Of a DNA stretch of 64,000 nt, positions 23,331 through 35,131 are shown piece by piece (within the stretch, counting starts at the first letter, position 1; every line of letters begins with the position of its first letter). Origin of the DNA: Alphaproteobacteria bacterium (lineage in GTDB: Bacteria; Pseudomonadota; Alphaproteobacteria; Micropepsales; Micropepsaceae); assembly GCA_023259375.1 (NCBI GenBank), contig JAHFQC010000016.1, forward strand, positions 11,349 to 75,348. The letters run 5' to 3'. Below the pieces are notes generated by a model. It was not told where the DNA came from and made no database searches. It saw nothing but the letters and a program-made list of their open reading frames with translations. The translations under genes were made by a program, and so were the position numbers.

Positions 23331-23804
23331 AAAAACCCCTTCGCGGCGTCTGACACGCCTGTATGTTCGACAATGCCATGGGCGTTTTCCGGTTCCCATC
23401 CAAAATTGCGGAAAATGCGTTTTGCGGCTGCATATTTTGATCCGTTAGGGCAAGGGCGCGCGCCGCGAACGTTCGCGTTGGTGAGATGATCGTCAACCTG
23501 CGAAGACACGACCGGCACAGGTCAACGGGACAACTGTCTCCATGATTTCAGCCGGGCGAGGGGATCGCGGTGTTTGCCGACGTCCACGGCTCCCGAACAC
23601 GGAAAAGTGAAGCCGCCCCTGTTCGCCATGTGCGCCGCGTCGAGGGACGCCGCGACCATCTGTCCAACAAGGCAGAGATGAGCTTTGCTGCTGGATATTT
23701 GCGTTGATGCGCGGCGCGCAACTACCCGCTGCCGCCAGTTGAGGAATTGCCGGGGCCGGGCAAAGCCGCTAATCATTTATCAGACAAAAAAATTGGAGGG
23801 AAGG

Positions 23805-26414
23805 ATGCGCGCCATCACAAAAAAGGTTTTTCCGTCGGTATTCGTGCTCGCACTGTGCACGGCCGCGTTCGGTGAGACACAGACTCAGGCGCCGTATCTC
23901 AATCCCGATCTGTCGCCGCAAGCGCGTGCCGCCGATCTGGTGTCCCGCATGACACTGCAGGAGAAGGTCCTGCAGATGCAGAGTGGCTCGCCGGCGCTGC
24001 CGCGGCTCGGCATTCCGGCCTACAACTGGTGGGGCGAGGCGCTGCATGGCGTCGCCAACGGGCACGCCACCGCGTTCCCCCAGGCCATCGGTTTGGGCGC
24101 GACCTTCGACGCCGATCTGATCCATCGCGTCGCCGACGTCACTTCGACCGAAGCGCGGGCCAAGTTCCATGAAGCCCAGCGCGCCGGCATTCCGGCCCGG
24201 CCGGGTGTCATGCCGACCGATATCGCGCTGACCTTCTGGTCGCCGAACATCAACATTTTCCGCGATCCACGCTGGGGCCGCGGCCAAGAAACCTACGGCG
24301 AAGACCCGTTCCTGTCGGGCCAGTTGGGCGCGGCGTTCGTGCGCGGCATGCAGGGTGACGATCCTCGTTACCTCAAGACCGTGGCGACGCCGAAGCACTA
24401 TGCCGTCCATTCCGGTCCCGAAACGCTGCGTCACGGCTTCGATGCCAAGATCAGCGATTACGACCTGAATAACACCTATCTGCCCGCGTTCCGCACCGCC
24501 GTCACGGAAGGCAAAGCGGAATCGGTGATGTGCGTCTATAACTCCGTCGACGGCGTGCCGGGTTGCGCTTCGGCCGATCTGTTGCAGAAGCATCTGCGCG
24601 ACGCCTGGGGCTTCGGCGGCTATGTCGTCAGCGACTGCGGCGCGGTCGGCGACATCTATCAGAACCACAAATACACCAAGACGATGGGCGAGGCGGCGGT
24701 CAAGGCCGTCAAGGCGGGCACCGACCTGACTTGCGGCACCGAATACGAGACCCTGCCGGCCGAAGTGAAGGCCGGCACCATCAGCGAGGCCGAGATCAAT
24801 CGCGCCCTGGAACGGCTGTTCGTGGCCCGCATTCGCTTGGGCATGTTCGATCCGCCGGATCGCGTTCCCTATGCCGCCATTCCCGCCAGCGAGAACGATT
24901 CCGCCGCGCATCGGGTCCTGGCGCTGGAAGCGGAAAACAAGGCCATTGTCCTGTTGAAGAACACGGGCATTCTGCCGCTCAAACCGTCGGTCAAGAAGAT
25001 CGCGGTGATCGGTCCGTCGGCGGACGATCCCGGCTCGCTCTTAGGCAACTATAACGGCATCTCGACCCGTCAGGTCACGCCGCTGGAAGGCATCCAGCAG
25101 CAGTTCCCCGGCGCCCAGATCCGCTATTCGGTCGGCGCGGCCTATACGGACTCGACGCCGGTGCCGGTGTCCTCGGCGGCGCTGTCGTCGTCTGACGGCA
25201 CCAAGCCCGGCGTGAAGGTGGAATACTACGACAATCCCGATTTCGCCGGGGCGCCGAAACTGGTGCGTGACGAGTCGCGGATCGCGTTCAATGAACGTTC
25301 GAGCGATGCGGCCGCGCGGGCCGTCATCCACGGCGACAAGTATTCGATCCGCTGGACCGGCACGTTCACCCCGCCGGTGAGCGGCGAGTACATGCTGGCC
25401 GCCCGCACCCATATGTGGAACCGCGGCGGCAAGATCCACATGTTCATCGACGGCAAGGATGTTGGGACCAATGTCACGCAAGGTCCCAGCGCCATTCCGG
25501 GTGCGCAACCGATGGGCATGATGGCGTCGCGCAATGCCGATGCCAAATTGACCTTCGTCGGCGGGCACAAGTATTCGATCCGCGTCGAGCTGCAGCAGAA
25601 TGGCCCTGAAGGCACGACCGATCTTTACTGGATCGCGCCCAAGGAAGCGGCCCTTCACGAAGCTGCGGAAGTCGTCAAGCAGTCGGACGTCGCGGTGGTG
25701 TTCGTCGGCCTCAACTCGTCGCTGGAAGGCGAAGAGAATCCGTGGGTGAAAATCCCCGGCTTCCTCGGCGGCGACCGCACCACGACCGACCTGCCGGAAC
25801 CGCAGGAGAAGCTGATCGAAGCCGCGGTGGCCACCGGCAAGCCGGTCGTCGTGGTGATGACCAGCGGCAGCGCGCTCAGCGTTAATTATGCCGACAAGCA
25901 TGCCGCGGCGGTGCTGCAGGCGTGGTACGGCGGCGAAGAGACCGGCACGGCCGTCGCTGCGACCCTGGCGGGCACCAACAATCCGTCGGGGCGGCTGCCG
26001 GTGACGTTCTACAAGAGCATTGACCAGATTCCGGCCTTCACCGAATACGCCATGAAGGGCCGCACCTATCGCTATTTCTCGGGTGAGCCGCTGTACGCCT
26101 TCGGTTACGGTCTCAGCTACTCGAAGTTCGCCTATTCCGGACTGAAGGCGGTGCGGAACGGCGCGTCGGCCGACGTCAGCGCGACCGTGAAGAACGTTTC
26201 GGCCCGCGACGGCGATGAAGTGGTCCAGCTCTACACCTCGGGAACCGGCGAGGAAATCCGCTCCTTGAAGGGCTTCCAGCGCGTCCATCTCAAGGCGGGT
26301 GAAAGCCGTCAGGTGACGTTCACGCTGAAGGACGTGCCGCAAGGCAATGTCGGGGTCAGCGTCGGCGGCGGCCAGCCGGTCGGCACGGTCCCGCACGTGG
26401 ACGGTAAGCTGTAA
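23805..26414 (+). CDS. Secreted GH3 beta-glycosidase with PA14 and Fn3-like domains
   Basis: ggagg RBS; signal peptide; WWGEALHG, RDPRWGRGQETYGEDP, KHYAVH, YVVSDCG (nucleophile Asp), LEGEE, FGYGLSY. Confidence 0.93.
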   Translation: MRAITKKVFPSVFVLALCTAAFGETQTQAPYLNPDLSPQARAADLVSRMTLQEKVLQMQSGSPALPRLGIPAYNWWGEALHGVANGHATAFPQAIGLGATFDADLIHRVADVTSTEARAKFHEAQRAGIPARPGVMPTDIALTFWSPNINIFRDPRWGRGQETYGEDPFLSGQLGAAFVRGMQGDDPRYLKTVATPKHYAVHSGPETLRHGFDAKISDYDLNNTYLPAFRTAVTEGKAESVMCVYNSVDGVPGCASADLLQKHLRDAWGFGGYVVSDCGAVGDIYQNHKYTKTMGEAAVKAVKAGTDLTCGTEYETLPAEVKAGTISEAEINRALERLFVARIRLGMFDPPDRVPYAAIPASENDSAAHRVLALEAENKAIVLLKNTGILPLKPSVKKIAVIGPSADDPGSLLGNYNGISTRQVTPLEGIQQQFPGAQIRYSVGAAYTDSTPVPVSSAALSSSDGTKPGVKVEYYDNPDFAGAPKLVRDESRIAFNERSSDAAARAVIHGDKYSIRWTGTFTPPVSGEYMLAARTHMWNRGGKIHMFIDGKDVGTNVTQGPSAIPGAQPMGMMASRNADAKLTFVGGHKYSIRVELQQNGPEGTTDLYWIAPKEAALHEAAEVVKQSDVAVVFVGLNSSLEGEENPWVKIPGFLGGDRTTTDLPEPQEKLIEAAVATGKPVVVVMTSGSALSVNYADKHAAAVLQAWYGGEETGTAVAATLAGTNNPSGRLPVTFYKSIDQIPAFTEYAMKGRTYRYFSGEPLYAFGYGLSYSKFAYSGLKAVRNGASADVSATVKNVSARDGDEVVQLYTSGTGEEIRSLKGFQRVHLKAGESRQVTFTLKDVPQGNVGVSVGGGQPVGTVPHVDGKL

Positions 26415-26453
26415 TCGACGCCGGGTCCGGCGATCAGGGGAAAGGTGGAGATC

Positions 26454-26888
26454 ATGCTCAAGGGAATTTCACCGCTTCTATCGCCGGATCTTCTCAGTGC
26501 GCTTTACCGGATGGGGCATGGCGACGAGATCATCCTCGCCGACGCGCATTTTCCGGGTGAAACCTGCAACAAGAATGTCCTGCGTGCCGATGGGCTCAGG
26601 ATCGCCGATCTTCTCCATGCGATCCTGCCGTTGTTCGTGCTGGACCCCTATGTGCCCGATCCGGTGCTGATGATGGCACCGGTTCCGGGCGACGAACTCG
26701 ATGCTGCGCTGCTCGCCGCCTATCGCAAGGTCCTCGCGCAGCACGCGCCGGATGCGCCGGCGATCCAGTTCATCGACCGCTTTCCGTTTTACGAACGCGC
26801 GCGTTCGGCCTACGCGGTCGTGATGACCGGGGAGACGGCGAAGTACGGCAATATCATCCTCAAGAAGGGCGTTACCCCGTTGTCATAA
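26454..26888 (+). CDS. fucU: L-fucose mutarotase, RbsD/FucU family
   Basis: [32 protein letters not shown]; FYERAR; [16 protein letters not shown]. Confidence 0.92.
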
Positions 26889-26892
26889 CGCC

Positions 26893-27834
26893 ATGGCCAG
26901 AGCGTCCAGCAAAGATCCGACGAAAGGACCGAGCCGCCCACGTGCCCGGAAAGGGCCGAGCCCGTCCGAGGCCGCAGTGTTGGCGTCGCCGGAGTTTTTC
27001 TCGACGCAGGTTGGCCATGTGCGGCGGATGTATCTCGACCTCAAGCCGGCGCGGAACATCTCGCTGGCGGTCGTTTGCGCCGGTTTCGAGCATTGTTCGC
27101 CGGATTTCGAGATCACCCGCGAGAAGTTTCCGTACTACTGCATCGAATACGTTCTGCGCGGGCAGGGCAGTGTGAGCCTGGGCAACCAGACCTGCGAGCT
27201 CAAAAGCGGTGACGTCTTCGCCTACACGCCCCAGACGCCGCACGTCATCAAGGCCAATGCGCGCGACCCCTTCATCAAGTACTTCGTCGATTTCACCGGA
27301 TCGCGCGCGGCGCAGCTTCTCGGCGACAGCCGGCTCTCGTCCGGCGACATCATGCGGCTGTTTCCGCCCGACAGTCTGGTACCTTTGTTCGAGGAGCTGA
27401 TCCGGTCGGGCTTGGCGGCAGGAGCCAAAGCGGATGTGCTATGCGTCAAGCTCCTGGAATGCATCGCGCTGAAGATCGCGGCGGCGTCGACCCCCTCCGA
27501 GGCGGCGAAGTCGCGGACCTTTGCGGTCTATCAGCAATGCCGGGCGCATATCGAAGAGCACTGCCTGCGTCTCAAAACCCTCGATCAGATCGCCAAGGAA
27601 TGTCGGATCGACAAGGCCTACATGTGCCATCTGTTCCGCCGCTTCGATCACGAGAGCCCGTACCAGAGCCTGTTGCATTTCAAGATGAAGGCGGCCGCCG
27701 ACGAGCTGCAGAGGAGCGGTGCGCTGATCAAGGATGTTGCGGCGGCGGTCGGATTTTCCGACCCGCTTCACTTTTCCAGGCTGTTCCACAGGGTCCTCGG
27801 AATGTGGCCGTCCGACTTCCGGAACCTGCGCTGA
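26893..27834 (+). CDS. AraC-family regulator with cupin-type ligand domain
   Basis: YYCIEYVLRGQG cupin; C-terminal IKDVAAAVGFSDPLHFSRLFHRVLGMWPSDFR. Confidence 0.9.
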   Translation: MARASSKDPTKGPSRPRARKGPSPSEAAVLASPEFFSTQVGHVRRMYLDLKPARNISLAVVCAGFEHCSPDFEITREKFPYYCIEYVLRGQGSVSLGNQTCELKSGDVFAYTPQTPHVIKANARDPFIKYFVDFTGSRAAQLLGDSRLSSGDIMRLFPPDSLVPLFEELIRSGLAAGAKADVLCVKLLECIALKIAAASTPSEAAKSRTFAVYQQCRAHIEEHCLRLKTLDQIAKECRIDKAYMCHLFRRFDHESPYQSLLHFKMKAAADELQRSGALIKDVAAAVGFSDPLHFSRLFHRVLGMWPSDFRNLR

Positions 27835-27863
27835 GCCCATCCGGCCCAGTGGCTGGGAAAAGT

Positions 27864-27897
27864 CAATTTTATCCATGTGAATTCCAATTATCGCCAT
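27864..27897 (+). promoter_or_regulatory. Candidate AraC tandem half-sites upstream of the epimerase operon
   Basis: caattttatccat (27864) and caattatcgccat (27885): 10/13 identical, 21-bp period, in an AT-rich intergenic region. Confidence 0.5.
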
Positions 27898-27961
27898 TTA
27901 CGAATATTGTGAATGGGAGCCTATCATTCGACGGCTTCACTCAATTGGGACAAGCATATCC

Positions 27962-29023
27962 ATGTCGATGGTCAAGAACGGGCGCGTTGTCGAAGTCGAC
28001 GAACCGACAAAAGCAGACGATCTCATTGTCATCACCGGGGCTGGCGGTTTTATCGGCGGCAATCTGGTGCAGTACTTCACCCGCAAGGGGTTCAAGAACA
28101 TCCGTGCTGTCGACAAGAAGCCGCTCTATGAGTGGTATCTGCACACGCCCGGCGTCGAGAACCTTTGCCTGGATGTCAGCATCGAAGAGAACTGCCGCCG
28201 CGTCTGCGAAGGCGCCGTGGAAGTCTACAACCTCGCGGCCGACATGGGCGGCATGGGCTTCATCGAGCGCTTCCGCATCGAGTGCCTGCGCTCGATCCTG
28301 ATCAACACCCACATGGTCGAAGCGGCCTATCGTGCCGGTGTCCGGCGCTATTTCTATTCGTCGTCGGCGTGCGCCTACAACACGCTTTTGCAGCAGGACC
28401 CGAACGTTCGCGCTCTGAAGGAATCCGACGCCTATCCGGCCATGGCCGAACGCGGCTACGGCTGGGAAAAGTTGATGAGCGAGATGTTCTGCCAGGAATA
28501 CTGGGCCGAACGCGGCATGAAGACGTTCATCGCGCGTTTCCACAACGTCTACGGCCCCAACGGCACCTGGGATGGCGGCCGCGAAAAGGCGCCGGCGGCG
28601 CTGTCGCGCAAAGTCGTCGAAGCGCTCGACGGCGGCTCGGAAGACATCACGATCTGGGGCGACGGTTCGCAGACCCGCAGCTTCATGTACATCGACGATT
28701 GCGTCCAGGGCATCGACAAGATCACGCATTGCGATGAGCTCATCGCCACGCCGATCAATCTCGGCTCGAGCGAACTGGTTTCGATCAACGAACTGCTGAC
28801 CAAGGTCGAGAAGGCGGCGAAGCTGAAGAAGCCGCTCAACCGGCATTACGATCCCACCGCCCCGAAGGGCGTCGGCGGGCGCAATTCCGACAACACCTTC
28901 ATCAAACAGGTGTTGAAGTGGGAGCCGTCCACGACGCTCGATGAAGGCTTGGCCAAGACCTATGCTTGGATCAGCGAGCAGTATCACCGCCGCAAGTCCG
29001 GCAAGCGCGTTGGGATTGGCTGA
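27962..29023 (+). CDS. NAD-dependent epimerase, GDP-D-mannose 3,5-epimerase (GME)-like
   Basis: ITGAGGFIG, NLAADMGGMGFI, SSSACAY, YGWEK, RFHNVYGP, GGREKAPAA, WGDGSQTRSF; these match the plant GME signature. Confidence 0.85.
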   Translation: MSMVKNGRVVEVDEPTKADDLIVITGAGGFIGGNLVQYFTRKGFKNIRAVDKKPLYEWYLHTPGVENLCLDVSIEENCRRVCEGAVEVYNLAADMGGMGFIERFRIECLRSILINTHMVEAAYRAGVRRYFYSSSACAYNTLLQQDPNVRALKESDAYPAMAERGYGWEKLMSEMFCQEYWAERGMKTFIARFHNVYGPNGTWDGGREKAPAALSRKVVEALDGGSEDITIWGDGSQTRSFMYIDDCVQGIDKITHCDELIATPINLGSSELVSINELLTKVEKAAKLKKPLNRHYDPTAPKGVGGRNSDNTFIKQVLKWEPSTTLDEGLAKTYAWISEQYHRRKSGKRVGIG

Positions 29024-29028
29024 TCATC

Positions 29029-29829
29029 ATGGGCGGGGTGGGGCTGCGAGTCAGATCGCTGTTGGGAGCGATACCCAATCGCCTGCAATTGGCGGGCGGC
29101 TGGATCGATCAACCGTTCGTCTCGCAGCACAACCCCTCGCCACCCGGCTCGATGGTGGTCGTCCAGATCGAGCCGGATTTTCCGGTCATGGAACGCTCCG
29201 GCATCGCCGGTAGCACGCGGGCGATCGCGGCGCGGCTCTGGGATGGACGTATCCCGCCGCGCCCGCCGGCCGAACTGGTGCGCGAACTCTATGCTGCGGA
29301 AAACGAGAGCAAGGCCGAGCCGTCCGGCTCGCAGGACATGATCGGCCTTGTCTATCCCGGCGTGAGCCGGCTCGATTACGACATCTCCGTCGACGGCGGG
29401 CTGTTTCCTAGTCACATCGAATCCTGCTGCGATCCCGAGGTGGCCGCGTGGCTCTCCAGGGTTCTGCACATCATTCCGATGGCGCCGCGGCCGCTCGGCT
29501 ACAGCCCGCTGGGTGTCAAGAATCTGACGCCGGAATGGGTGTCGCTGCTCGGCCGCTGCGGCGCCGAGTGTTATGCCGCGATCGTTAAACGTGACCTGAT
29601 GGCGTTGGGCGCCTCGCTGAATTTGAACATGCGGTGTTGGGAGAGTTTGCTTCCGCATGTCTGCCGTCACCCGTTGATTGCACCCGGCCTTATGGATCTG
29701 TTGCAGGCCTATCAGGGCGACTATCCTGGGGCGATGTTTTCCGGCTGCGGTGGCGGCTATCTCATTGTGGTTTCCGAGGACCCGGTTCCGGGCGCCTTCC
29801 AGGTGACAGTGAGGGTCGCGAACGCATGA
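29029..29829 (+). CDS. GHMP-superfamily sugar kinase, fucokinase-like and divergent
   Basis: PNRLQLAGGWIDQP (cf. fucokinase PxRxDxAGGWxD), RSGIAGS, SGSQD, GAMFSGCGGGY. Confidence 0.65.
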   Translation: MGGVGLRVRSLLGAIPNRLQLAGGWIDQPFVSQHNPSPPGSMVVVQIEPDFPVMERSGIAGSTRAIAARLWDGRIPPRPPAELVRELYAAENESKAEPSGSQDMIGLVYPGVSRLDYDISVDGGLFPSHIESCCDPEVAAWLSRVLHIIPMAPRPLGYSPLGVKNLTPEWVSLLGRCGAECYAAIVKRDLMALGASLNLNMRCWESLLPHVCRHPLIAPGLMDLLQAYQGDYPGAMFSGCGGGYLIVVSEDPVPGAFQVTVRVANA

Positions 29830-30611
29830 GCAAGGCATTTGTCGAAGGCACCTTCGACGACATCAAATCCCTTGATCTTCGCTTCCTTGAAGAGGCGGCA
29901 AAATCCGGTCCGCTCACGGTGCTGCTGCGGTCCGACGAGGCGATCCTGGCCGAGACCGGCAAGGCGCCGCGTTTTCCGTTCGCCGAACGGCAGTATTTCC
30001 TGGCTGCGACGCGCTTCGTCGCCGATGTCGTGGAGTGTCCTTCCACGGGCGCGGCTCTGCTGGCGTGGAATGACGGCATCTGGGTTGAGCGCGAAGGCGG
30101 CAGTCGCCAGTCCTATTGCCGCGAGCACGGCATCGCGCATCGCCTGGTGACCGCGGCGGACCTGAGCGGCTTTCCCGAGCCTCAGCCGAAGCCGGTGCAA
30201 GGTCCCAAAGTGGTGGTGACCGGCTGTTACGACTGGTTCCATTCCGGCCATGTGCGGTTTTTCGAAGAGGCATCTGCTTTCGGCGCGCTGTATGTCGTGG
30301 TCGGGCACGACCGCAACATCCGCGCCCTCAAAGGCGAAGGCCATCCGCTGCTTCCGGAAGCCGAGCGGCGCTACGTCGTTGGCGCGATCAAGCACGTCAC
30401 CCAAGCGCTGATCTCTACTGGCGAGGGCTGGCTGGACGCGGATCCGCAGATCAAGCAGATTAAGCCGGACTATTACGTCGTCAACGAAGACGGCGACAAG
30501 GGCGGCAAGCGGGAATACTGCGAATCCAACGGTATTCAATACAAGGTACTGCGACGAGAACCGGCGCCGGGGTTGCCGAAGCGATCGAGCACGGATTTGC
30601 GCGGCTTCTAG
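29826..30611 (+). CDS. Tandem-domain HxGH nucleotidyltransferase (cytidylyltransferase/RfaE-like)
   Basis: Domain 2: VVVTGCYDWFHSGH, EAERRY, KRSSTDLR; domain 1 degenerate (GTFDDIKSLD). Confidence 0.8.
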   Translation: MSKAFVEGTFDDIKSLDLRFLEEAAKSGPLTVLLRSDEAILAETGKAPRFPFAERQYFLAATRFVADVVECPSTGAALLAWNDGIWVEREGGSRQSYCREHGIAHRLVTAADLSGFPEPQPKPVQGPKVVVTGCYDWFHSGHVRFFEEASAFGALYVVVGHDRNIRALKGEGHPLLPEAERRYVVGAIKHVTQALISTGEGWLDADPQIKQIKPDYYVVNEDGDKGGKREYCESNGIQYKVLRREPAPGLPKRSSTDLRGF

Positions 30612-30632
30612 CGCGGCAAACGGGGACGGGTC

Positions 30633-31718
30633 ATGCGTTATGGCGTTATTCTGGCGGGCGGTTCCGGAACAAGGCTATGGCCATGGAGCAGGGCCGGCCG
30701 TCCCAAGCAGTTGCTGCCGCTGATCGGCGGCCGTTCGCTGCTGGAACTCTCCTATGAACGTCTTCTGCCTCTGGTCGGCCCCGACCGTCTGTTCGTCTGC
30801 GCTGGTAATGGGTTTGCTGATCAGATTTGCGATGCATTGAAGCTCAATGAAAGCCAGTTCATCGGCGAACCCACCGGGCGCGATACCACGGCCGCCATCG
30901 GCTATTGCGCCGCGATGCTGCAGAAGAAGGATCCTGAGGCGGTGTTTGCGATCTGCACCGCGGACCATCTCATCGAGCCTCAGGACGCATTCCGCGCCAG
31001 CATGGCCGCCGGTTTCGAATTGGCCGAGCGCCGCCCCAACGCGCTTGTCACCTTTGGTGTCGTGCCTGATGCGCCGTCGACGGCCTACGGCTATCTCGAA
31101 TTGGGCGGCGACGCCGATAGCGCCAAAACCGTGGCCTGTTTCCGCGAGAAGCCGCCCATCGAGCAGGCCGAGCAATTCTTCGCCGCCGGTCCTTCGCGCT
31201 ATCTGTGGAACAGCGGCATGTTCGTTTGGCGCGCCGCGACGGTTCTGAAGTGCCTTGAGATGTTCCAGCCCGCGATCTACCGCGCCGTGATGGCGATCGC
31301 CGCAGCGGACGAGGGCGAGGCATTCCGGCAAACGCTGGCGGAAATCTATCCGACGATCACCAAGATCAGCGTCGATTACGCGATCATGGAGCCCGCCTCG
31401 CGCGATGCCCGCGTCGAGGTTCTGGCGCTGCCGCTGGACCTCAGCTGGCGCGATATCGGGTCGTGGAACGCCTTCGCCCAGATCTGCGACCACGACAAGG
31501 ACGGCAACGCCGTCGCGGCCGCGCGCACCGCCGCTCTCGATTGCCGCAACACCGTCATCGCCTCCGACAACCCCGACCACTTGGTTGCCGTTATCGGCTG
31601 TGACGACCTGATGGTGATCCACACCGCCGATGCGACGCTGGTTTGCCGCGCCGACAAGGCGGAGTCCGTCAAGAAGATCCAGGAGATTCTGAAAGCAAAG
31701 TACGCCTCGTATCTGTAG
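30633..31718 (+). CDS. manC: Mannose-1-phosphate guanylyltransferase (no PMI cupin domain)
   Basis: VILAGGSGTRLWPWSRAGRPKQ, EPTGRDTTAA, ADHLI, YGYLE, FREKP, WNSGMF, SVDYAIME, WRDIGSW. Confidence 0.9.
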   Translation: MRYGVILAGGSGTRLWPWSRAGRPKQLLPLIGGRSLLELSYERLLPLVGPDRLFVCAGNGFADQICDALKLNESQFIGEPTGRDTTAAIGYCAAMLQKKDPEAVFAICTADHLIEPQDAFRASMAAGFELAERRPNALVTFGVVPDAPSTAYGYLELGGDADSAKTVACFREKPPIEQAEQFFAAGPSRYLWNSGMFVWRAATVLKCLEMFQPAIYRAVMAIAAADEGEAFRQTLAEIYPTITKISVDYAIMEPASRDARVEVLALPLDLSWRDIGSWNAFAQICDHDKDGNAVAAARTAALDCRNTVIASDNPDHLVAVIGCDDLMVIHTADATLVCRADKAESVKKIQEILKAKYASYL

Positions 31719-31754
31719 TTATAAAAAACAAAAACGAGTTTAGGGGACGGGAAC

Positions 31755-32990
31755 ATGACTAGCGAACAGCGGCGCGAACGCGTCGCGCTTTTCCGCTTTG
31801 CCGACGGCCGCAAAATGCTGGGCATATTTGCGTTGGTGACGACGCTGTTTCTATTGTGGGGGTTCTGCAACGGTCTGATCGACGTGCTCAACAAGCACTT
31901 CCAGTCGACGCTGCACATCAACAAGTTCCAGTCCGGCTTCGTTCAGACCGCGAACTATATGGCCTACTTCCTGATGGCCATTCCGGCGGGGCTATTGGCC
32001 AAGCGGTTCGGCTATAAGGGCGGCATCCTGGTCGGCTTGACGCTGATCGTCGCCGGCGCCTTGTGGTTCGTGGCGGCGACCCAGGTCGCGACGTACTGGG
32101 CCTTCCTCGCCGGCCTGTTCATTCTGGCCGCGGGCATGACCTGCCTCGAGACTGTCGCCAATCCCTATACGACGGTGCTAGGCCCGGCCGAGACCGGCGC
32201 CGCGCGCATCAACATCGCCCAGACGTTCAACGGCGTCGGCTGGATTTTGGGACCGATCGTCGGCGGCCATTTCATCTTCGAAGGCGCCAAGAACGCCGAT
32301 GCCAATTCGGGCCTTTACGTGCCGTATCTCGGCATTGCGGTGGTGGTGGCGGTTCTGCTGGTCGTCTTCGCCTTCTCGCGTCTGCCCGATCTAGCGGCGC
32401 AGGACGATGTCGAACAGGAGGCTGGGCCCGGCAAAAGCCTGTGGCAGCGGCCGCGCTTCCTGTTGGGCGTAATTGCGCAGTTCCTCTACGTCGCGGCGCA
32501 GACGGGCATCTTCGCGTTCTTCATCAATTATGTGATCGAGAACCAGCACGTCACCGAAATCGTCGCCAAGGATTGGCTCGGCTTTTTCGGCTTCGGCCTG
32601 TTCATGGTCGGGCGCCTGTGCGGCAGCGCGGTGGTGAGCTTCGTCAAGGCACATCAGGCCTTGTCGCTTTATGCCGTGATCAATGTCGCGCTGTGCGGCG
32701 TGGCGATGCTGGGCGGCAATCTCGGGCTTGCGGCGGTGCTGGGATCGTTCTTCTTCATGTCGATCATGTTCCCGACCATCTTCGCGCTCGCCATCAAGGG
32801 TCTCGGCCCGCACACCAAGGTAGGCTCCTCGATCATCGTGATGTCGATCGTCGGTGGTGCGATCGCGCCGCCGGTCATGGGACATATCGCCGATGTTGCC
32901 TCGATGCGGGTCGGCTTTTTCGTTCCGCTGGTGTGCTTCGCCATCATCGCGGCTTACGGCGTGATCTGGCCGCGGCTCGAGCGGGAGTAA
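31755..32990 (+). CDS. fucP: Sugar:H+ symporter of the FucP/GluP family
   Basis: LFLLWGFCNGLIDVLNKHF, GYKGGIL, CLETVANPY, RINIAQTFNG, MSIMFPTIF, VMSIVGGAI. Confidence 0.88.
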   Translation: MTSEQRRERVALFRFADGRKMLGIFALVTTLFLLWGFCNGLIDVLNKHFQSTLHINKFQSGFVQTANYMAYFLMAIPAGLLAKRFGYKGGILVGLTLIVAGALWFVAATQVATYWAFLAGLFILAAGMTCLETVANPYTTVLGPAETGAARINIAQTFNGVGWILGPIVGGHFIFEGAKNADANSGLYVPYLGIAVVVAVLLVVFAFSRLPDLAAQDDVEQEAGPGKSLWQRPRFLLGVIAQFLYVAAQTGIFAFFINYVIENQHVTEIVAKDWLGFFGFGLFMVGRLCGSAVVSFVKAHQALSLYAVINVALCGVAMLGGNLGLAAVLGSFFFMSIMFPTIFALAIKGLGPHTKVGSSIIVMSIVGGAIAPPVMGHIADVASMRVGFFVPLVCFAIIAAYGVIWPRLERE

Positions 32991-32993
32991 ACC

Positions 32994-34382
32994 TCAGAGC
33001 TGTATCGCCGTCCGCACCCCGATGACGAACGCGTTCTTCATCGCCGGTGCGGACTGCGTCCGGTCGGCGTTGGGAGCGGCACTGAAGCCAGCCGGGTGGA
33101 TGATGTATTGGATGTCCGGCTGGATCGTCCACCACGGTGCGGCGACATAGCTGTACGACAGTTCGATCGCCGCCTCGTAATCCCGTACCGGGCGCGTCGC
33201 CGACGGCTTGGCACGGTTATAGTCGCGGTCGAAGCTGCGGGCGCGGTCGCTGATCCGGGCGTAGGCGAAGCCGAGGCCGAGAATGTCGCTGTCGTGGCCT
33301 TCGAACAGGCCGACATAGTTGAGCCCGGTGTCGAAGTAGAAGGAGACCGTATTGCGGTCTCCTGGCGCCGCACTGACGCGGAGAAAGCCGCCGAGACCCT
33401 GAGCCTCGTTTGCGCCTTCGCGCCACAGCCGCTTGTCGACGCTGGCGTAGACGCCGTAATCACCGCGCCGCAGATACGGAGCACCATTGGTCTCGGCGAT
33501 CGGATCGCCGTCCGCGTCATAGCGCAGGTCGGCAAACTTACCGGAATGATACCAGCCGGCCAGTTTGAACGTGGCGGGAAGATCGCCGGTGACCGTGTAG
33601 CCGATCTCGCTGATGACCAGCAGATCGTCGTTGGTGGCGAAGGTCAGGCCGTCGTCATTGCAGATTTGCGGATCGCCGTCGCAATGTCCCGCGGGATTGC
33701 CGTTGAACACGCCGGTCTGCCAGTAGAATTCCGTGTTCGGAGCCCATTTCACCCGCACGCCCGGGGTCGACAGCGGATAGCCCGGTCCACCCTGGGGCAT
33801 GTCGGCGGCGGCCAGGGCAGGCCAGCCGAAACTCCCGTTCATGAACACGGTAGCGTAGTCGCTGAGCATGAACTCATCGTCGGCGGCGATTTGGCCGAGG
33901 CGGACCGACAGCGTGTTGCTGAACAGGCTTTGCTCGAGATAGGCGTCGAACAGGCGGGCGGCGCGATGCGCCTCGATGCTGGATGGATCGAGCAGGTTGC
34001 CGCCCAGCGTATCGGACGTTAGCCCGCGGCCGTGGATTTGAAGCGCGTTGACGTGAATGGTGGCGCCCGGCCAGCCGGCCAGCTTTTCCAGGTCGAGATC
34101 GAGATCGAATTCGGCGCGGCCGGTGAACACGGTCCCGGTCTTGAGACCGCCCGAGGTATTGCCGAGCACTTCCGCCACTTCGGATGCGCTGAGGGTAATG
34201 CCGCGATCCGTAAGCTGGGTGCGCAACCCGCCCCAGCTTCCGGTCAAGGTATCGTGCCCCCAGATGCTGTCGCCAGCCGTGGCGTCCTGGCCATAGCCCG
34301 GCGCAGCGGCAGCGATGACGGCCGCCGCGAGCGGGAGAACGAGTCGCCAGAGCTTGGCGGCATCATTCGTTCTGGCCTTCAT
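32994..34382 (-). CDS. Carbohydrate-selective porin, OprB family
   Basis: Signal peptide; LTGSWGGLRTQL, RLGQIAADDEF, PGYPLSTPG, IQPDIQYIIHPAG; C-terminus VIGVRTAIQL. Confidence 0.9.
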   Translation of the reverse strand: MKARTNDAAKLWRLVLPLAAAVIAAAAPGYGQDATAGDSIWGHDTLTGSWGGLRTQLTDRGITLSASEVAEVLGNTSGGLKTGTVFTGRAEFDLDLDLEKLAGWPGATIHVNALQIHGRGLTSDTLGGNLLDPSSIEAHRAARLFDAYLEQSLFSNTLSVRLGQIAADDEFMLSDYATVFMNGSFGWPALAAADMPQGGPGYPLSTPGVRVKWAPNTEFYWQTGVFNGNPAGHCDGDPQICNDDGLTFATNDDLLVISEIGYTVTGDLPATFKLAGWYHSGKFADLRYDADGDPIAETNGAPYLRRGDYGVYASVDKRLWREGANEAQGLGGFLRVSAAPGDRNTVSFYFDTGLNYVGLFEGHDSDILGLGFAYARISDRARSFDRDYNRAKPSATRPVRDYEAAIELSYSYVAAPWWTIQPDIQYIIHPAGFSAAPNADRTQSAPAMKNAFVIGVRTAIQL

Positions 34383-34585
34383 TCCCAGGAAATCCCCTCA
34401 GGCTGGCCCCCCGTCGCCCCCGGGGATCTGTTGTTGTTAGTGAGAACCAATCGCAACTTACTTTGCACTATGAACCACGGGGAAAGTGCGGGCTCAAGGG
34501 GTGCGCGTCAAAACGTCTTCGGACTCTGGGAAAACAAAGTCCTGCAGGATCTACGAGTGAGCGAGGTCGGCGGCGGGAGGTTGAT

Positions 34586-35131
34586 CTACATCAGGGGGGT
34601 ATTCGGTCCGCTGATGAATTGCCCGACCGACGGATCGTAGCGAAGCACTTTGCGTCCCGCACCGGGCCGCTCCAGCACGACCGCAACGCCCGGCCTCCGG
34701 GGATCGGCGAGGATCGCGGTGATGGTCCCGTCCGGCAGGGCGATGTCCGAAATCTGATGGACCCGCAGCACCGGGAACGCGCGGCAATTGCGACAACCGG
34801 AAGCGATCTTCGCTGGCATGGCGGGCGCCATGTCGCCGTCCGCTTGGGCCGGAATGCGCAGGAGCATTTCCTGAGCCCCCCGCCGCGCGAGTACGTACAG
34901 GCCGTCCGCAGCGGGATGCACCGATACCAGCATCCGATCCGGACGCGGCCCGGCGATGACGTAGGCAGTGCTCGGCTTGCCGGTCGCAAAGCCGATGAGC
35001 GTTCGGCTCGTGGTGTTGCCCGACAACAGGAAGCTTTCTTTCCCGCGTGTGACAGCAAGGTCTTCGGCGGTGGCCGCACCAAACGAAAAAAGGCAAATCG
35101 CCAACGCCGTCAGCAGCGATCGGTATGGCAT
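34586..35131 (-). CDS. Hypothetical exported protein
   Basis: Signal-peptide-like N-terminus LLTALAICLFSFGAATA; internal CRNC; no family recognised. Confidence 0.55.
   Translation of the reverse strand: MPYRSLLTALAICLFSFGAATAEDLAVTRGKESFLLSGNTTSRTLIGFATGKPSTAYVIAGPRPDRMLVSVHPAADGLYVLARRGAQEMLLRIPAQADGDMAPAMPAKIASGCRNCRAFPVLRVHQISDIALPDGTITAILADPRRPGVAVVLERPGAGRKVLRYDPSVGQFISGPNTPLM

Follow-up and report, generated by a model that had tools for sequence, protein, structure and literature searches.

GDP-mannose 3,5-epimerase (GM35E, or GME in plants) has so far been viewed solely as a biosynthetic enzyme, serving ascorbate and cell wall synthesis in plants and the synthesis of lipopolysaccharide (LPS) or antibiotics in bacteria. 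Its occurrence in bacteria is already known, the enzyme of Methylacidiphilum having been characterized in 2019, and the roles proposed for it there lie in LPS and antibiotic synthesis (PMC6678494). The reaction is reversible, with an equilibrium toward GDP-mannose (GDP-Man), and enzymes of the fucokinase/GDP-fucose pyrophosphorylase (GFPP) type take L-galactose as well (PMC8787198). Here we analyze a gene for an enzyme of this family (positions 27962 to 29023, protein P0001) within a stretch of 64,000 nucleotides, called the window in the following, from an alphaproteobacterial genome of the Micropepsaceae (GenBank assembly GCA_023259375.1, contig JAHFQC010000016.1, positions 11,349 to 75,348), which is a groundwater metagenome bin. 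The epimerase is encoded together with a mutarotase, a putative sugar kinase, a putative nucleotidyltransferase, a mannose-1-phosphate guanylyltransferase and a sugar permease. We propose, with a probability that we would put at roughly 55%, that these proteins form a Leloir-like salvage or catabolic route leading from L-galactose through L-galactose-1-phosphate (L-Gal-1-P), GDP-linked L-galactose (GDP-L-Gal) and GDP-Man to mannose-1-phosphate (Man-1-P).

The Epimerase and Its Active Site

The gene in question is an open reading frame (ORF) with a stop-free translation:

27962..29023, + strand: short-chain dehydrogenase/reductase (SDR) in the family of GDP-mannose 3,5-epimerases, 353 aa, P0001, assigned by the Pfam Epimerase domain, a PDB match, its residues and a tree

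The N-terminal dinucleotide-binding motif, GAGGFIGG (residues 26-33), is of the GxxGxxG/A type that marks the Rossmann fold of extended SDRs, and its final glycine is G or A across the clade of close relatives defined below, as it is in plants (PMC6678494). An earlier note on this DNA, written from the sequence alone, had pointed to four motifs as the hallmark of a GM35E, and all four are found in the ORF: NLAADMGGMGFI (residues 90-101, nucleotides 28229-28264), SSAC (residues 134-137, nucleotides 28361-28372), YGxEK in the form YGWEK (residues 166-170, nucleotides 28457-28471), and GGREKAPAA (residues 205-213, nucleotides 28574-28600). A GGRNSDN motif is located toward the C-terminus (residues 305-311). 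The Pfam NAD-dependent epimerase/dehydratase domain is matched with 2e-35, and a phmmer search against PDB sequences returned the Arabidopsis GM35E as top match (2c59, E 2.7e-79, 270 bits), collinear over residues 22-346. All five top matches are GM35Es, the next family being GDP-L-fucose synthase (82 bits, E 4e-22).

The features separating GM35E from GDP-fucose synthase (GMER) and GalE have been reviewed (PMC8787198). In the Arabidopsis enzyme, the triad S143, Y174 and K178 (S...YxxxK) carries out the oxidation and reduction at C4, C145 and K217 form the acid-base pair, the lysine of which is a histidine in GMER, R306 acidifies the cysteine and is a lysine in GMER, R243 binds the diphosphate, and N203 is conserved (PMC8787198). 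These positions were inspected in an alignment of 183 sequences that included the window clade, a poplar GME, three GDP-L-fucose synthases (Fcl), and the GalE and a UDP-glucuronate-epimerase-like (UDP-GlcA-epimerase-like) protein from the same genome as the window. The triad corresponds to S135, Y166 and K170 of P0001 and is kept in 81 of 81 clade members; the pair for C5/C3 epimerization corresponds to C137 and K209, and R306, R243 and N203 to R307, R239 and N195, respectively. The full set S135/C137/Y166/K170/N195/K209/R239/R307 is likewise present in all 81 members and in the poplar representative. The three Fcl proteins show His in the K209 column and Lys in the R307 column, and the GalE and UDP-GlcA-epimerase-like proteins lack both Cys137 and Lys209, having Thr and Met in the K209 column. 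Trees were computed from 183 rows (FastTree) and from 61 rows (IQ-TREE, LG+C20), the Methylacidiphilum GM35E being outside both row sets, and the GME-like proteins were split from the five outgroups (Fcl, GalE, UDP-GlcA-epimerase-like) with a support of 90 in the former and an SH-aLRT of 92 in the latter.

That P0001 could be a misread UDP-sugar 4-epimerase or GDP-L-fucose synthase might be suspected from the public records, which label its homologues just 'NAD-dependent epimerase/dehydratase family protein', and from the NCBIfam models, as it reaches no equivalog cut-off and the top model by name is that of GDP-L-fucose synthase (NF047922). Yet P0001 reaches 102.6 bits with this model, whose cut-off is 500, and 61 bits with the GalE model (TIGR01179), whose cut-off is 262; taken with the residues that Fcl, GalE and the UDP-GlcA-epimerase-like protein carry in the diagnostic columns, and with the split on the tree, these scores rule out either identity and leave it a negligible probability. 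The phylogenetic check that the earlier note had called for was run here with Fcl, GalE and the UDP-GlcA-epimerase-like protein as outgroups, and P0001 was placed neither in a UDP-sugar epimerase clade nor in an Fcl clade. Catalytic residues, the match to 2c59 and the tree all agree with the GME-type assignment made there, and we consider P0001, on these sequence criteria, a genuine GM35E-type enzyme of a distinct bacterial subfamily.

The note had further spoken of a full plant signature. The residues are indeed all present, but the signature belongs to the family as a whole, and P0001 is 43% identical (BLASTP) to poplar GME, the representative of the plant cluster, and falls in its own bacterial subfamily. 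In the 61-row IQ-TREE, the window clade (support 99) stands apart from the clade of poplar and Trichomonas GMEs (100), and it is separate too from a third GME-like clade (99), to which another GME-like gene of the genome belongs. When the library was clustered at 50% identity, the whole window clade fell into one cluster, the representative of which is 82% identical to P0001; 822 clusters matched P0001 with E < 1e-30, and the next full-length relatives outside its own cluster are at most 55% identical. Judging from these comparisons, P0001 is not specifically plant-like.

The product of this second GME-like gene (G000 contig C31:2506-3540, minus strand, locus L087) carries the same set of catalytic residues and shares 43% identity with P0001 and 49% with the poplar GME. 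The gene's neighbors encode a NusG-like antiterminator, a Bac_transf priming sugar transferase, a GFO/IDH/MocA oxidoreductase and a GT87 protein, and its probable role is that of a biosynthetic GM35E within a locus for polysaccharide synthesis.

Gene Organization in the Window

The features around the epimerase gene are the following:

23685..26414, + strand: GH3 glycosidase with a PA14 insert (Glyco_hydro_3, Glyco_hydro_3_C, PA14); operon membership uncertain
26445..26888, + strand: L-fucose mutarotase FucU, 147 aa, P0006 (NF011949, 192 bits against a cut-off of 141; RbsD_FucU 2.6e-41)
26893..27834, + strand: AraC-family regulator, 313 aa, P0007 (HTH_18, and AraC_binding, the AraC-type sugar-binding cupin)
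27835..27961, no strand: AT-rich intergenic region upstream of the epimerase, from reading the sequence a possible operator/promoter
29029..29829, + strand: predicted compact GHMP-fold anomeric sugar kinase, fucokinase/heptokinase-like, 266 aa, P0002 (AlphaFold2 model, Foldseek)
29826..30611, + strand: two-lobed nucleotidyltransferase of the cytidylyltransferase fold, 261 aa, P0003 (HldE domain II 1.4e-17, CTP_transf_like)
30633..31718, + strand: mannose-1-phosphate guanylyltransferase ManC without phosphomannose isomerase (PMI) domain, 361 aa, P0004 (TIGR01479, 264 bits over the guanylyltransferase part; PDB 2x5s 1.3e-51)
31755..32990, + strand: FucP-type L-fucose:H+ symporter of the major facilitator superfamily (MFS), 411 aa, P0005 (TIGR00885, 298.9 bits against a cut-off of 280.4)
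32994..34382, - strand (convergent): carbohydrate-selective OprB porin (OprB 1.7e-90); membership uncertain

From FucU to FucP the genes form one row on the same strand (26445-32990) with short gaps, the kinase gene starting 6 nucleotides past the epimerase stop and the transferase gene overlapping the kinase gene by an ATGA. A promoter and terminator scan of 23400-34600 gave no more sites than shuffled sequence, and the boundaries of the putative operon are therefore set by gene spacing only. A pair of similar 13-mers, caattttatccat and caattatcgccat, occurs at a distance of 21 bp from each other (27864-27897) in the AT-rich region preceding the epimerase gene, and could represent an AraC-type operator. 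The position of the epimerase behind an AraC regulator, as described in the earlier note, was borne out, the regulator gene lying directly upstream. The permease said to lie beside it was found in the same tight row and on the same strand, but at a distance of three genes (2.7 kb) on the downstream side, where the GHMP-type kinase is the immediate neighbor.

The kinase has no Pfam or NCBIfam match and a weak sequence match in the PDB (E 0.17 to FKP), and it was identified by fold search only. Its AlphaFold2 model, computed from an alignment of 34 orthologues, has a predicted local distance difference test (pLDDT) score of 91.8, and the top Foldseek matches of this model are the WcbL heptokinase, the fucokinase domain of FKP with bound beta-L-fucose-1-phosphate (9iip), an HddA-like kinase and galactokinases, all of which makes P0002, as modeled, a GHMP anomeric sugar kinase. 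In the transferase, the HxGH motif occurs in the C-terminal cytidylyltransferase-like lobe only, the N-terminal lobe being degenerate, and the nearest relatives are HldE domain II and ethanolamine-phosphate cytidylyltransferase (3elb, 9e-14).

The GH3 glycosidase, with PA14 inserted in its C-terminal domain, is encoded directly upstream of FucU and does not recur near the epimerase-kinase-transferase cassette in other loci. The adjacent OprB porin does not recur in other loci either, and is possibly the entry through the outer membrane.

Conservation of the Cassette Across Genomes

In a scan with one genome per species, at least 597 genomes encode a relative of the epimerase, and gene context was studied in the best 80 loci. 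The epimerases of these loci are 69-88% identical to P0001 and come from Verrucomicrobiota, Acidobacteriota, Chloroflexota, Planctomycetota, Spirochaetota, Latescibacterota, Lentisphaerota, Rhodothermota and Rhizomicrobium electricum. The strain DSM 21034 of the latter (L001), a cultured relative, encodes an 88% identical epimerase and the full operon. The kinase gene lies directly downstream of the epimerase gene in 57 of the 80 loci and is then followed by the transferase gene in 50 of the 57, so that the core triad of the Leloir-type gene set found in the window (FucU, P0002, P0003, P0001 and ManC) is conserved in 50 of 80. Kinase-bearing loci were seen in Verrucomicrobiota, Acidobacteriota, Chloroflexota, Planctomycetota, Spirochaetota, Latescibacterota and Rhodothermota as well as in Rhizomicrobium. 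ManC is encoded beside the cassette in 14 of the 80 loci, and orthologues of the AraC regulator (42-53% identity) adjoin the epimerase in 17 other loci, where they are divergently oriented.

Flanking ORFs were clustered and the recurrent clusters annotated; as the ORFs were called by a crude longest-ORF method that left some antisense artifacts (clusters 4 and 8), the resulting neighbor counts are lower bounds. The recurrent neighbors of the cassette include LacI regulators (17 loci), GH29 alpha-L-fucosidases (13), AraC regulators (11), ManC (11), FucU, a sugar ABC transporter and FucP, GH29 being the commonest hydrolase. A Pfam tally over a half-sample of the ORFs less than 3 kb from the cassette (109 ORFs) lists LacI/periplasmic-binding, AraC, NTP_transferase, GH29, FucU and type-I PMI families, and no glycosyltransferase family was seen twice or more in it.

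In three loci of Anaerolineae (L033, L053, L054), an L-fucose isomerase with all three FucI domains is encoded beside the row of epimerase, kinase, transferase and FucU; judging from these domains, the cassette is encoded there in one locus with the classical L-fucose pathway. A kinase homologue broken up into two or three reading frames was seen in two genomes (L106/L107 in G024:C29 and L110-L112 in G030:C4), reflecting either frameshift errors of the assembly or decaying copies.

The clade is tightly conserved, with 70-88% identity across at least eight phyla, and the epimerases of Rhizomicrobium, an alphaproteobacterium, nest among sequences from Verrucomicrobiota. Both observations suggest horizontal spread of the cassette together with a very strong constraint on the epimerase; in the same loci, the kinases are 41-72% and the transferases 42-61% identical. 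The epimerases of three metagenome bins titled 'uncultured Bifidobacteriaceae' (L002, L003, L008) group with those of Verrucomicrobiota, and these labels look like placeholders or errors.

A Putative Route for L-Galactose and Its Alternatives

The sequences establish the family of the epimerase, its complete set of catalytic residues, and the order of the genes with its conservation; which sugar serves as substrate, which nucleotide the transferase uses, which way the flux runs and what acts as inducer we infer from this context. The operon would be inducible by the sugar, and free L-galactose would be imported by FucP, together with the OprB porin, and have its anomer set by FucU. The compact GHMP kinase would then produce beta-L-Gal-1-P, which the enzyme with the cytidylyltransferase fold would convert to GDP-L-Gal. 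As the third enzyme of the route, the epimerase would work in the thermodynamically favored direction and yield GDP-Man, by a transient, NAD-dependent oxidation of C4 through Tyr166/Lys170/Ser135, an exchange of the C5 and C3 protons by Cys137 and Lys209, and a final reduction of C4. ManC, running in reverse with pyrophosphate (PPi), would release Man-1-P and GTP, and a phosphomannomutase and a PMI encoded elsewhere in the genome would lead on to fructose-6-phosphate. The net cost would be one ATP, with GTP and PPi cycling between the two pyrophosphorylases. The genome of the window, which is 96.5% complete, encodes four GH29 homologues (two on C96, one each on C76 and C3) and three mutases of the phosphoglucomutase/phosphomannomutase (PGM/PMM) type, and no homologue of FucI was found in it. 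Part of a type-II PMI domain is encoded at the edge of one contig (C125:3-200), and a ManC-like N-terminal stretch lies on another contig (C82:3202-3774). The two pieces probably belong to one bifunctional ManC/PMI gene split by the assembly, in which case the ManC of the operon would be an extra paralogue without PMI.

The catabolic direction is favored because the conserved partners of the epimerase are those of uptake, hydrolysis, mutarotation and sugar-responsive regulation, and not those of glycan assembly, and because the equilibrium of GM35E favors GDP-Man while fucokinase-type enzymes accept L-galactose. The cross-phylum context, with its regulators, fucosidases, mutarotase, transporters, kinase and nucleotidyltransferase and no recurrent glycosyltransferase, thus speaks for the suggestion of the earlier note that the use of the enzyme would be catabolic rather than biosynthetic. 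L-galactose is preferred over L-fucose since GDP-L-Gal alone would give a product for which a way into central metabolism is known, and since FucI adjoins the cassette in some loci.

Several observations weigh against this proposal. FucP, FucU and GH29 point in the first place to L-fucose rather than to L-galactose. ManC and PMI fit the synthesis of GDP-L-Gal equally well. The families nearest to the transferase use ATP or CTP, while GTP would be needed here. P0001 lies outside the plant-containing GME subclade and, at 43% identity to plant GME, the substrate range of its subfamily may differ. Furthermore, the kinase is absent from the locus in 18 of the 75 clade members that could be assessed, and among their neighbors GT2 (5), FGGY kinases, methyltransferases and WecG head the tally. 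What speaks for the proposal is that the kinase occurs elsewhere in 7 of 10 such genomes, in two cases adjacent to another epimerase gene of the clade. The idea that the kinase-less members form a separate biosynthetic subclade was rejected, as they are interspersed on the tree, where the context changes its state at least 12 times. Because these loci are scattered through the clade, the same enzyme type, as far as sequences tell, serves both settings and is biosynthetic in some genomes.

The operon might accordingly supply GDP-L-Gal, and perhaps GDP-L-fucose, for glycan synthesis, with ManC and the epimerase making GDP-L-Gal de novo from Man-1-P, the kinase and the transferase salvaging L-galactose or L-fucose as FKP does in Bacteroides, and glycosyltransferases encoded elsewhere using the product. 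Biosynthesis is known to proceed from ManC to GME, every published role of a bacterial GM35E is biosynthetic (PMC6678494, PMC8787198), and the kinase-less loci with their GT2, WecG or methyltransferase neighbors fit this explanation; in addition, no Gmd or Fcl above the curated cut-offs was found in the genome of the window, which would make salvage its sole route to GDP-L-fucose. Yet the cassette loci show no recurrent glycosyltransferase, and it is LacI or AraC regulators, GH29, FucU, transporters and FucI that recur in them; to induce de novo and salvage enzymes for one and the same product would make little regulatory sense; and the second GME, kept in a polysaccharide locus, implies that the biosynthetic need is covered elsewhere. 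We thus regard a supply function in the window as less likely than the catabolic route, while taking it seriously.

Two further explanations concern the substrate. The cassette could act on a 6-deoxy sugar, turning L-fucose through GDP-L-fucose into GDP-6-deoxy-D-mannose (GDP-D-rhamnose) or another 6-deoxyhexose, as FucP and FucU exceed the curated cut-offs of L-fucose equivalogs, GH29 is the most frequent hydrolase neighbor and the kinase fold matches fucokinase. Such a conversion would bring no catabolic gain, since we know of no route from GDP-D-rhamnose or D-rhamnose-1-phosphate into central metabolism; the FucI beside the cassette in the three Anaerolineae loci implies a separate L-fucose pathway there, and all GM35E active-site residues examined are unchanged, so that we give this explanation little credence. 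It is similarly improbable that the epimerase, while having the GME fold, acts on some other nucleotide sugar, be it an ADP- or CDP-linked L-hexose delivered by the HldE-II/CCT-like transferase, or GDP-L-gulose or GDP-D-altrose. The known members of the transferase fold use ATP or CTP, and the subfamily is distinct from the assayed GM35Es in the tree, which would agree with such a substrate, but a GDP-mannose pyrophosphorylase (ManC) is encoded in the operon of the window and in 13 other loci, and the nucleotide-sugar-binding half of the epimerase is well conserved with plant GME.

Implications

Neither the enzyme family nor its presence in bacteria is new, whereas the catabolic role would be. 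In the open-access literature searched, we found no description of a GDP-linked or Leloir-like bacterial route for L-galactose, of an L-galactose kinase or of a bacterial GDP-L-Gal pyrophosphorylase, nor of this subfamily, of its constant association with a fucokinase-like kinase of compact size and a transferase of the cytidylyltransferase fold, or of a catabolic role for it. The broader proposal, namely that bacteria possess a GDP-linked, Leloir-like catabolism of L-galactose in which a dedicated GM35E subfamily runs 'backwards', spread over hundreds of species of polysaccharide degraders in soil, peat, sediment and groundwater and over at least eight phyla, is in our estimate an even bet. 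L-galactose occurs in the rhamnogalacturonan II (RG-II) of pectin, in some xyloglucans, in red-algal galactans and in microbial glycans, and a subfamily working in reverse would represent a new central route for its use by environmental bacteria. It would also assign a function to three widespread genes, encoding an epimerase with a generic name, a kinase without family and a two-lobed nucleotidyltransferase, and provide a ready enzyme set for biocatalysis in which GDP-L-sugars are made or consumed. The route is directly testable, because the same operon is present in the cultured R. electricum DSM 21034.

Comparison with Known Systems

With the Arabidopsis GME (2c59, 2c54, 2c5a, 2c5e), P0001 shares the extended-SDR fold and all of the named catalytic and substrate-site residues. 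The GM35E of Methylacidiphilum fumariolicum SolV is a characterized bacterial member of the same family (EC 5.1.3.18; PMC6678494). What sets P0001 apart from the known GM35Es is its gene context, which is that of sugar uptake and activation and not of ascorbate, LPS or antibiotic synthesis. The activation of a free L-sugar by a GHMP kinase of the fucokinase type and a nucleotidyltransferase is reminiscent of FKP, which has been reported to form GDP-L-Gal from L-galactose (PMC8787198). In the window, however, the two activities would reside in two separate small proteins, the transferase has the cytidylyltransferase (HxGH) fold instead of the GFPP fold, and both are coupled to an epimerase and ManC. 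An oxidative pathway for L-galactose exists in Bacteroides vulgatus, where L-galactose dehydrogenase, a lactonase and L-galactonate dehydrogenase act in turn; the nutrient would be the same, but the chemistry is unrelated and proceeds without nucleotide sugars.

It is the Leloir pathway (GalM, GalK, GalT and GalE) whose logic the proposed route would share most fully, as in both a mutarotase and an anomeric kinase of the GHMP family are followed by nucleotide activation and by an SDR epimerase acting on the nucleotide sugar, a common hexose-1-phosphate is released, and the net expense is one ATP. This likeness is a functional analogy and not a homology. The route proposed here would be GDP-linked instead of UDP-linked, its epimerization would be double (3,5) instead of single (4) and turn an L-sugar into a D-sugar, and two pyrophosphorylases would take the place of the uridylyl exchange carried out by GalT.

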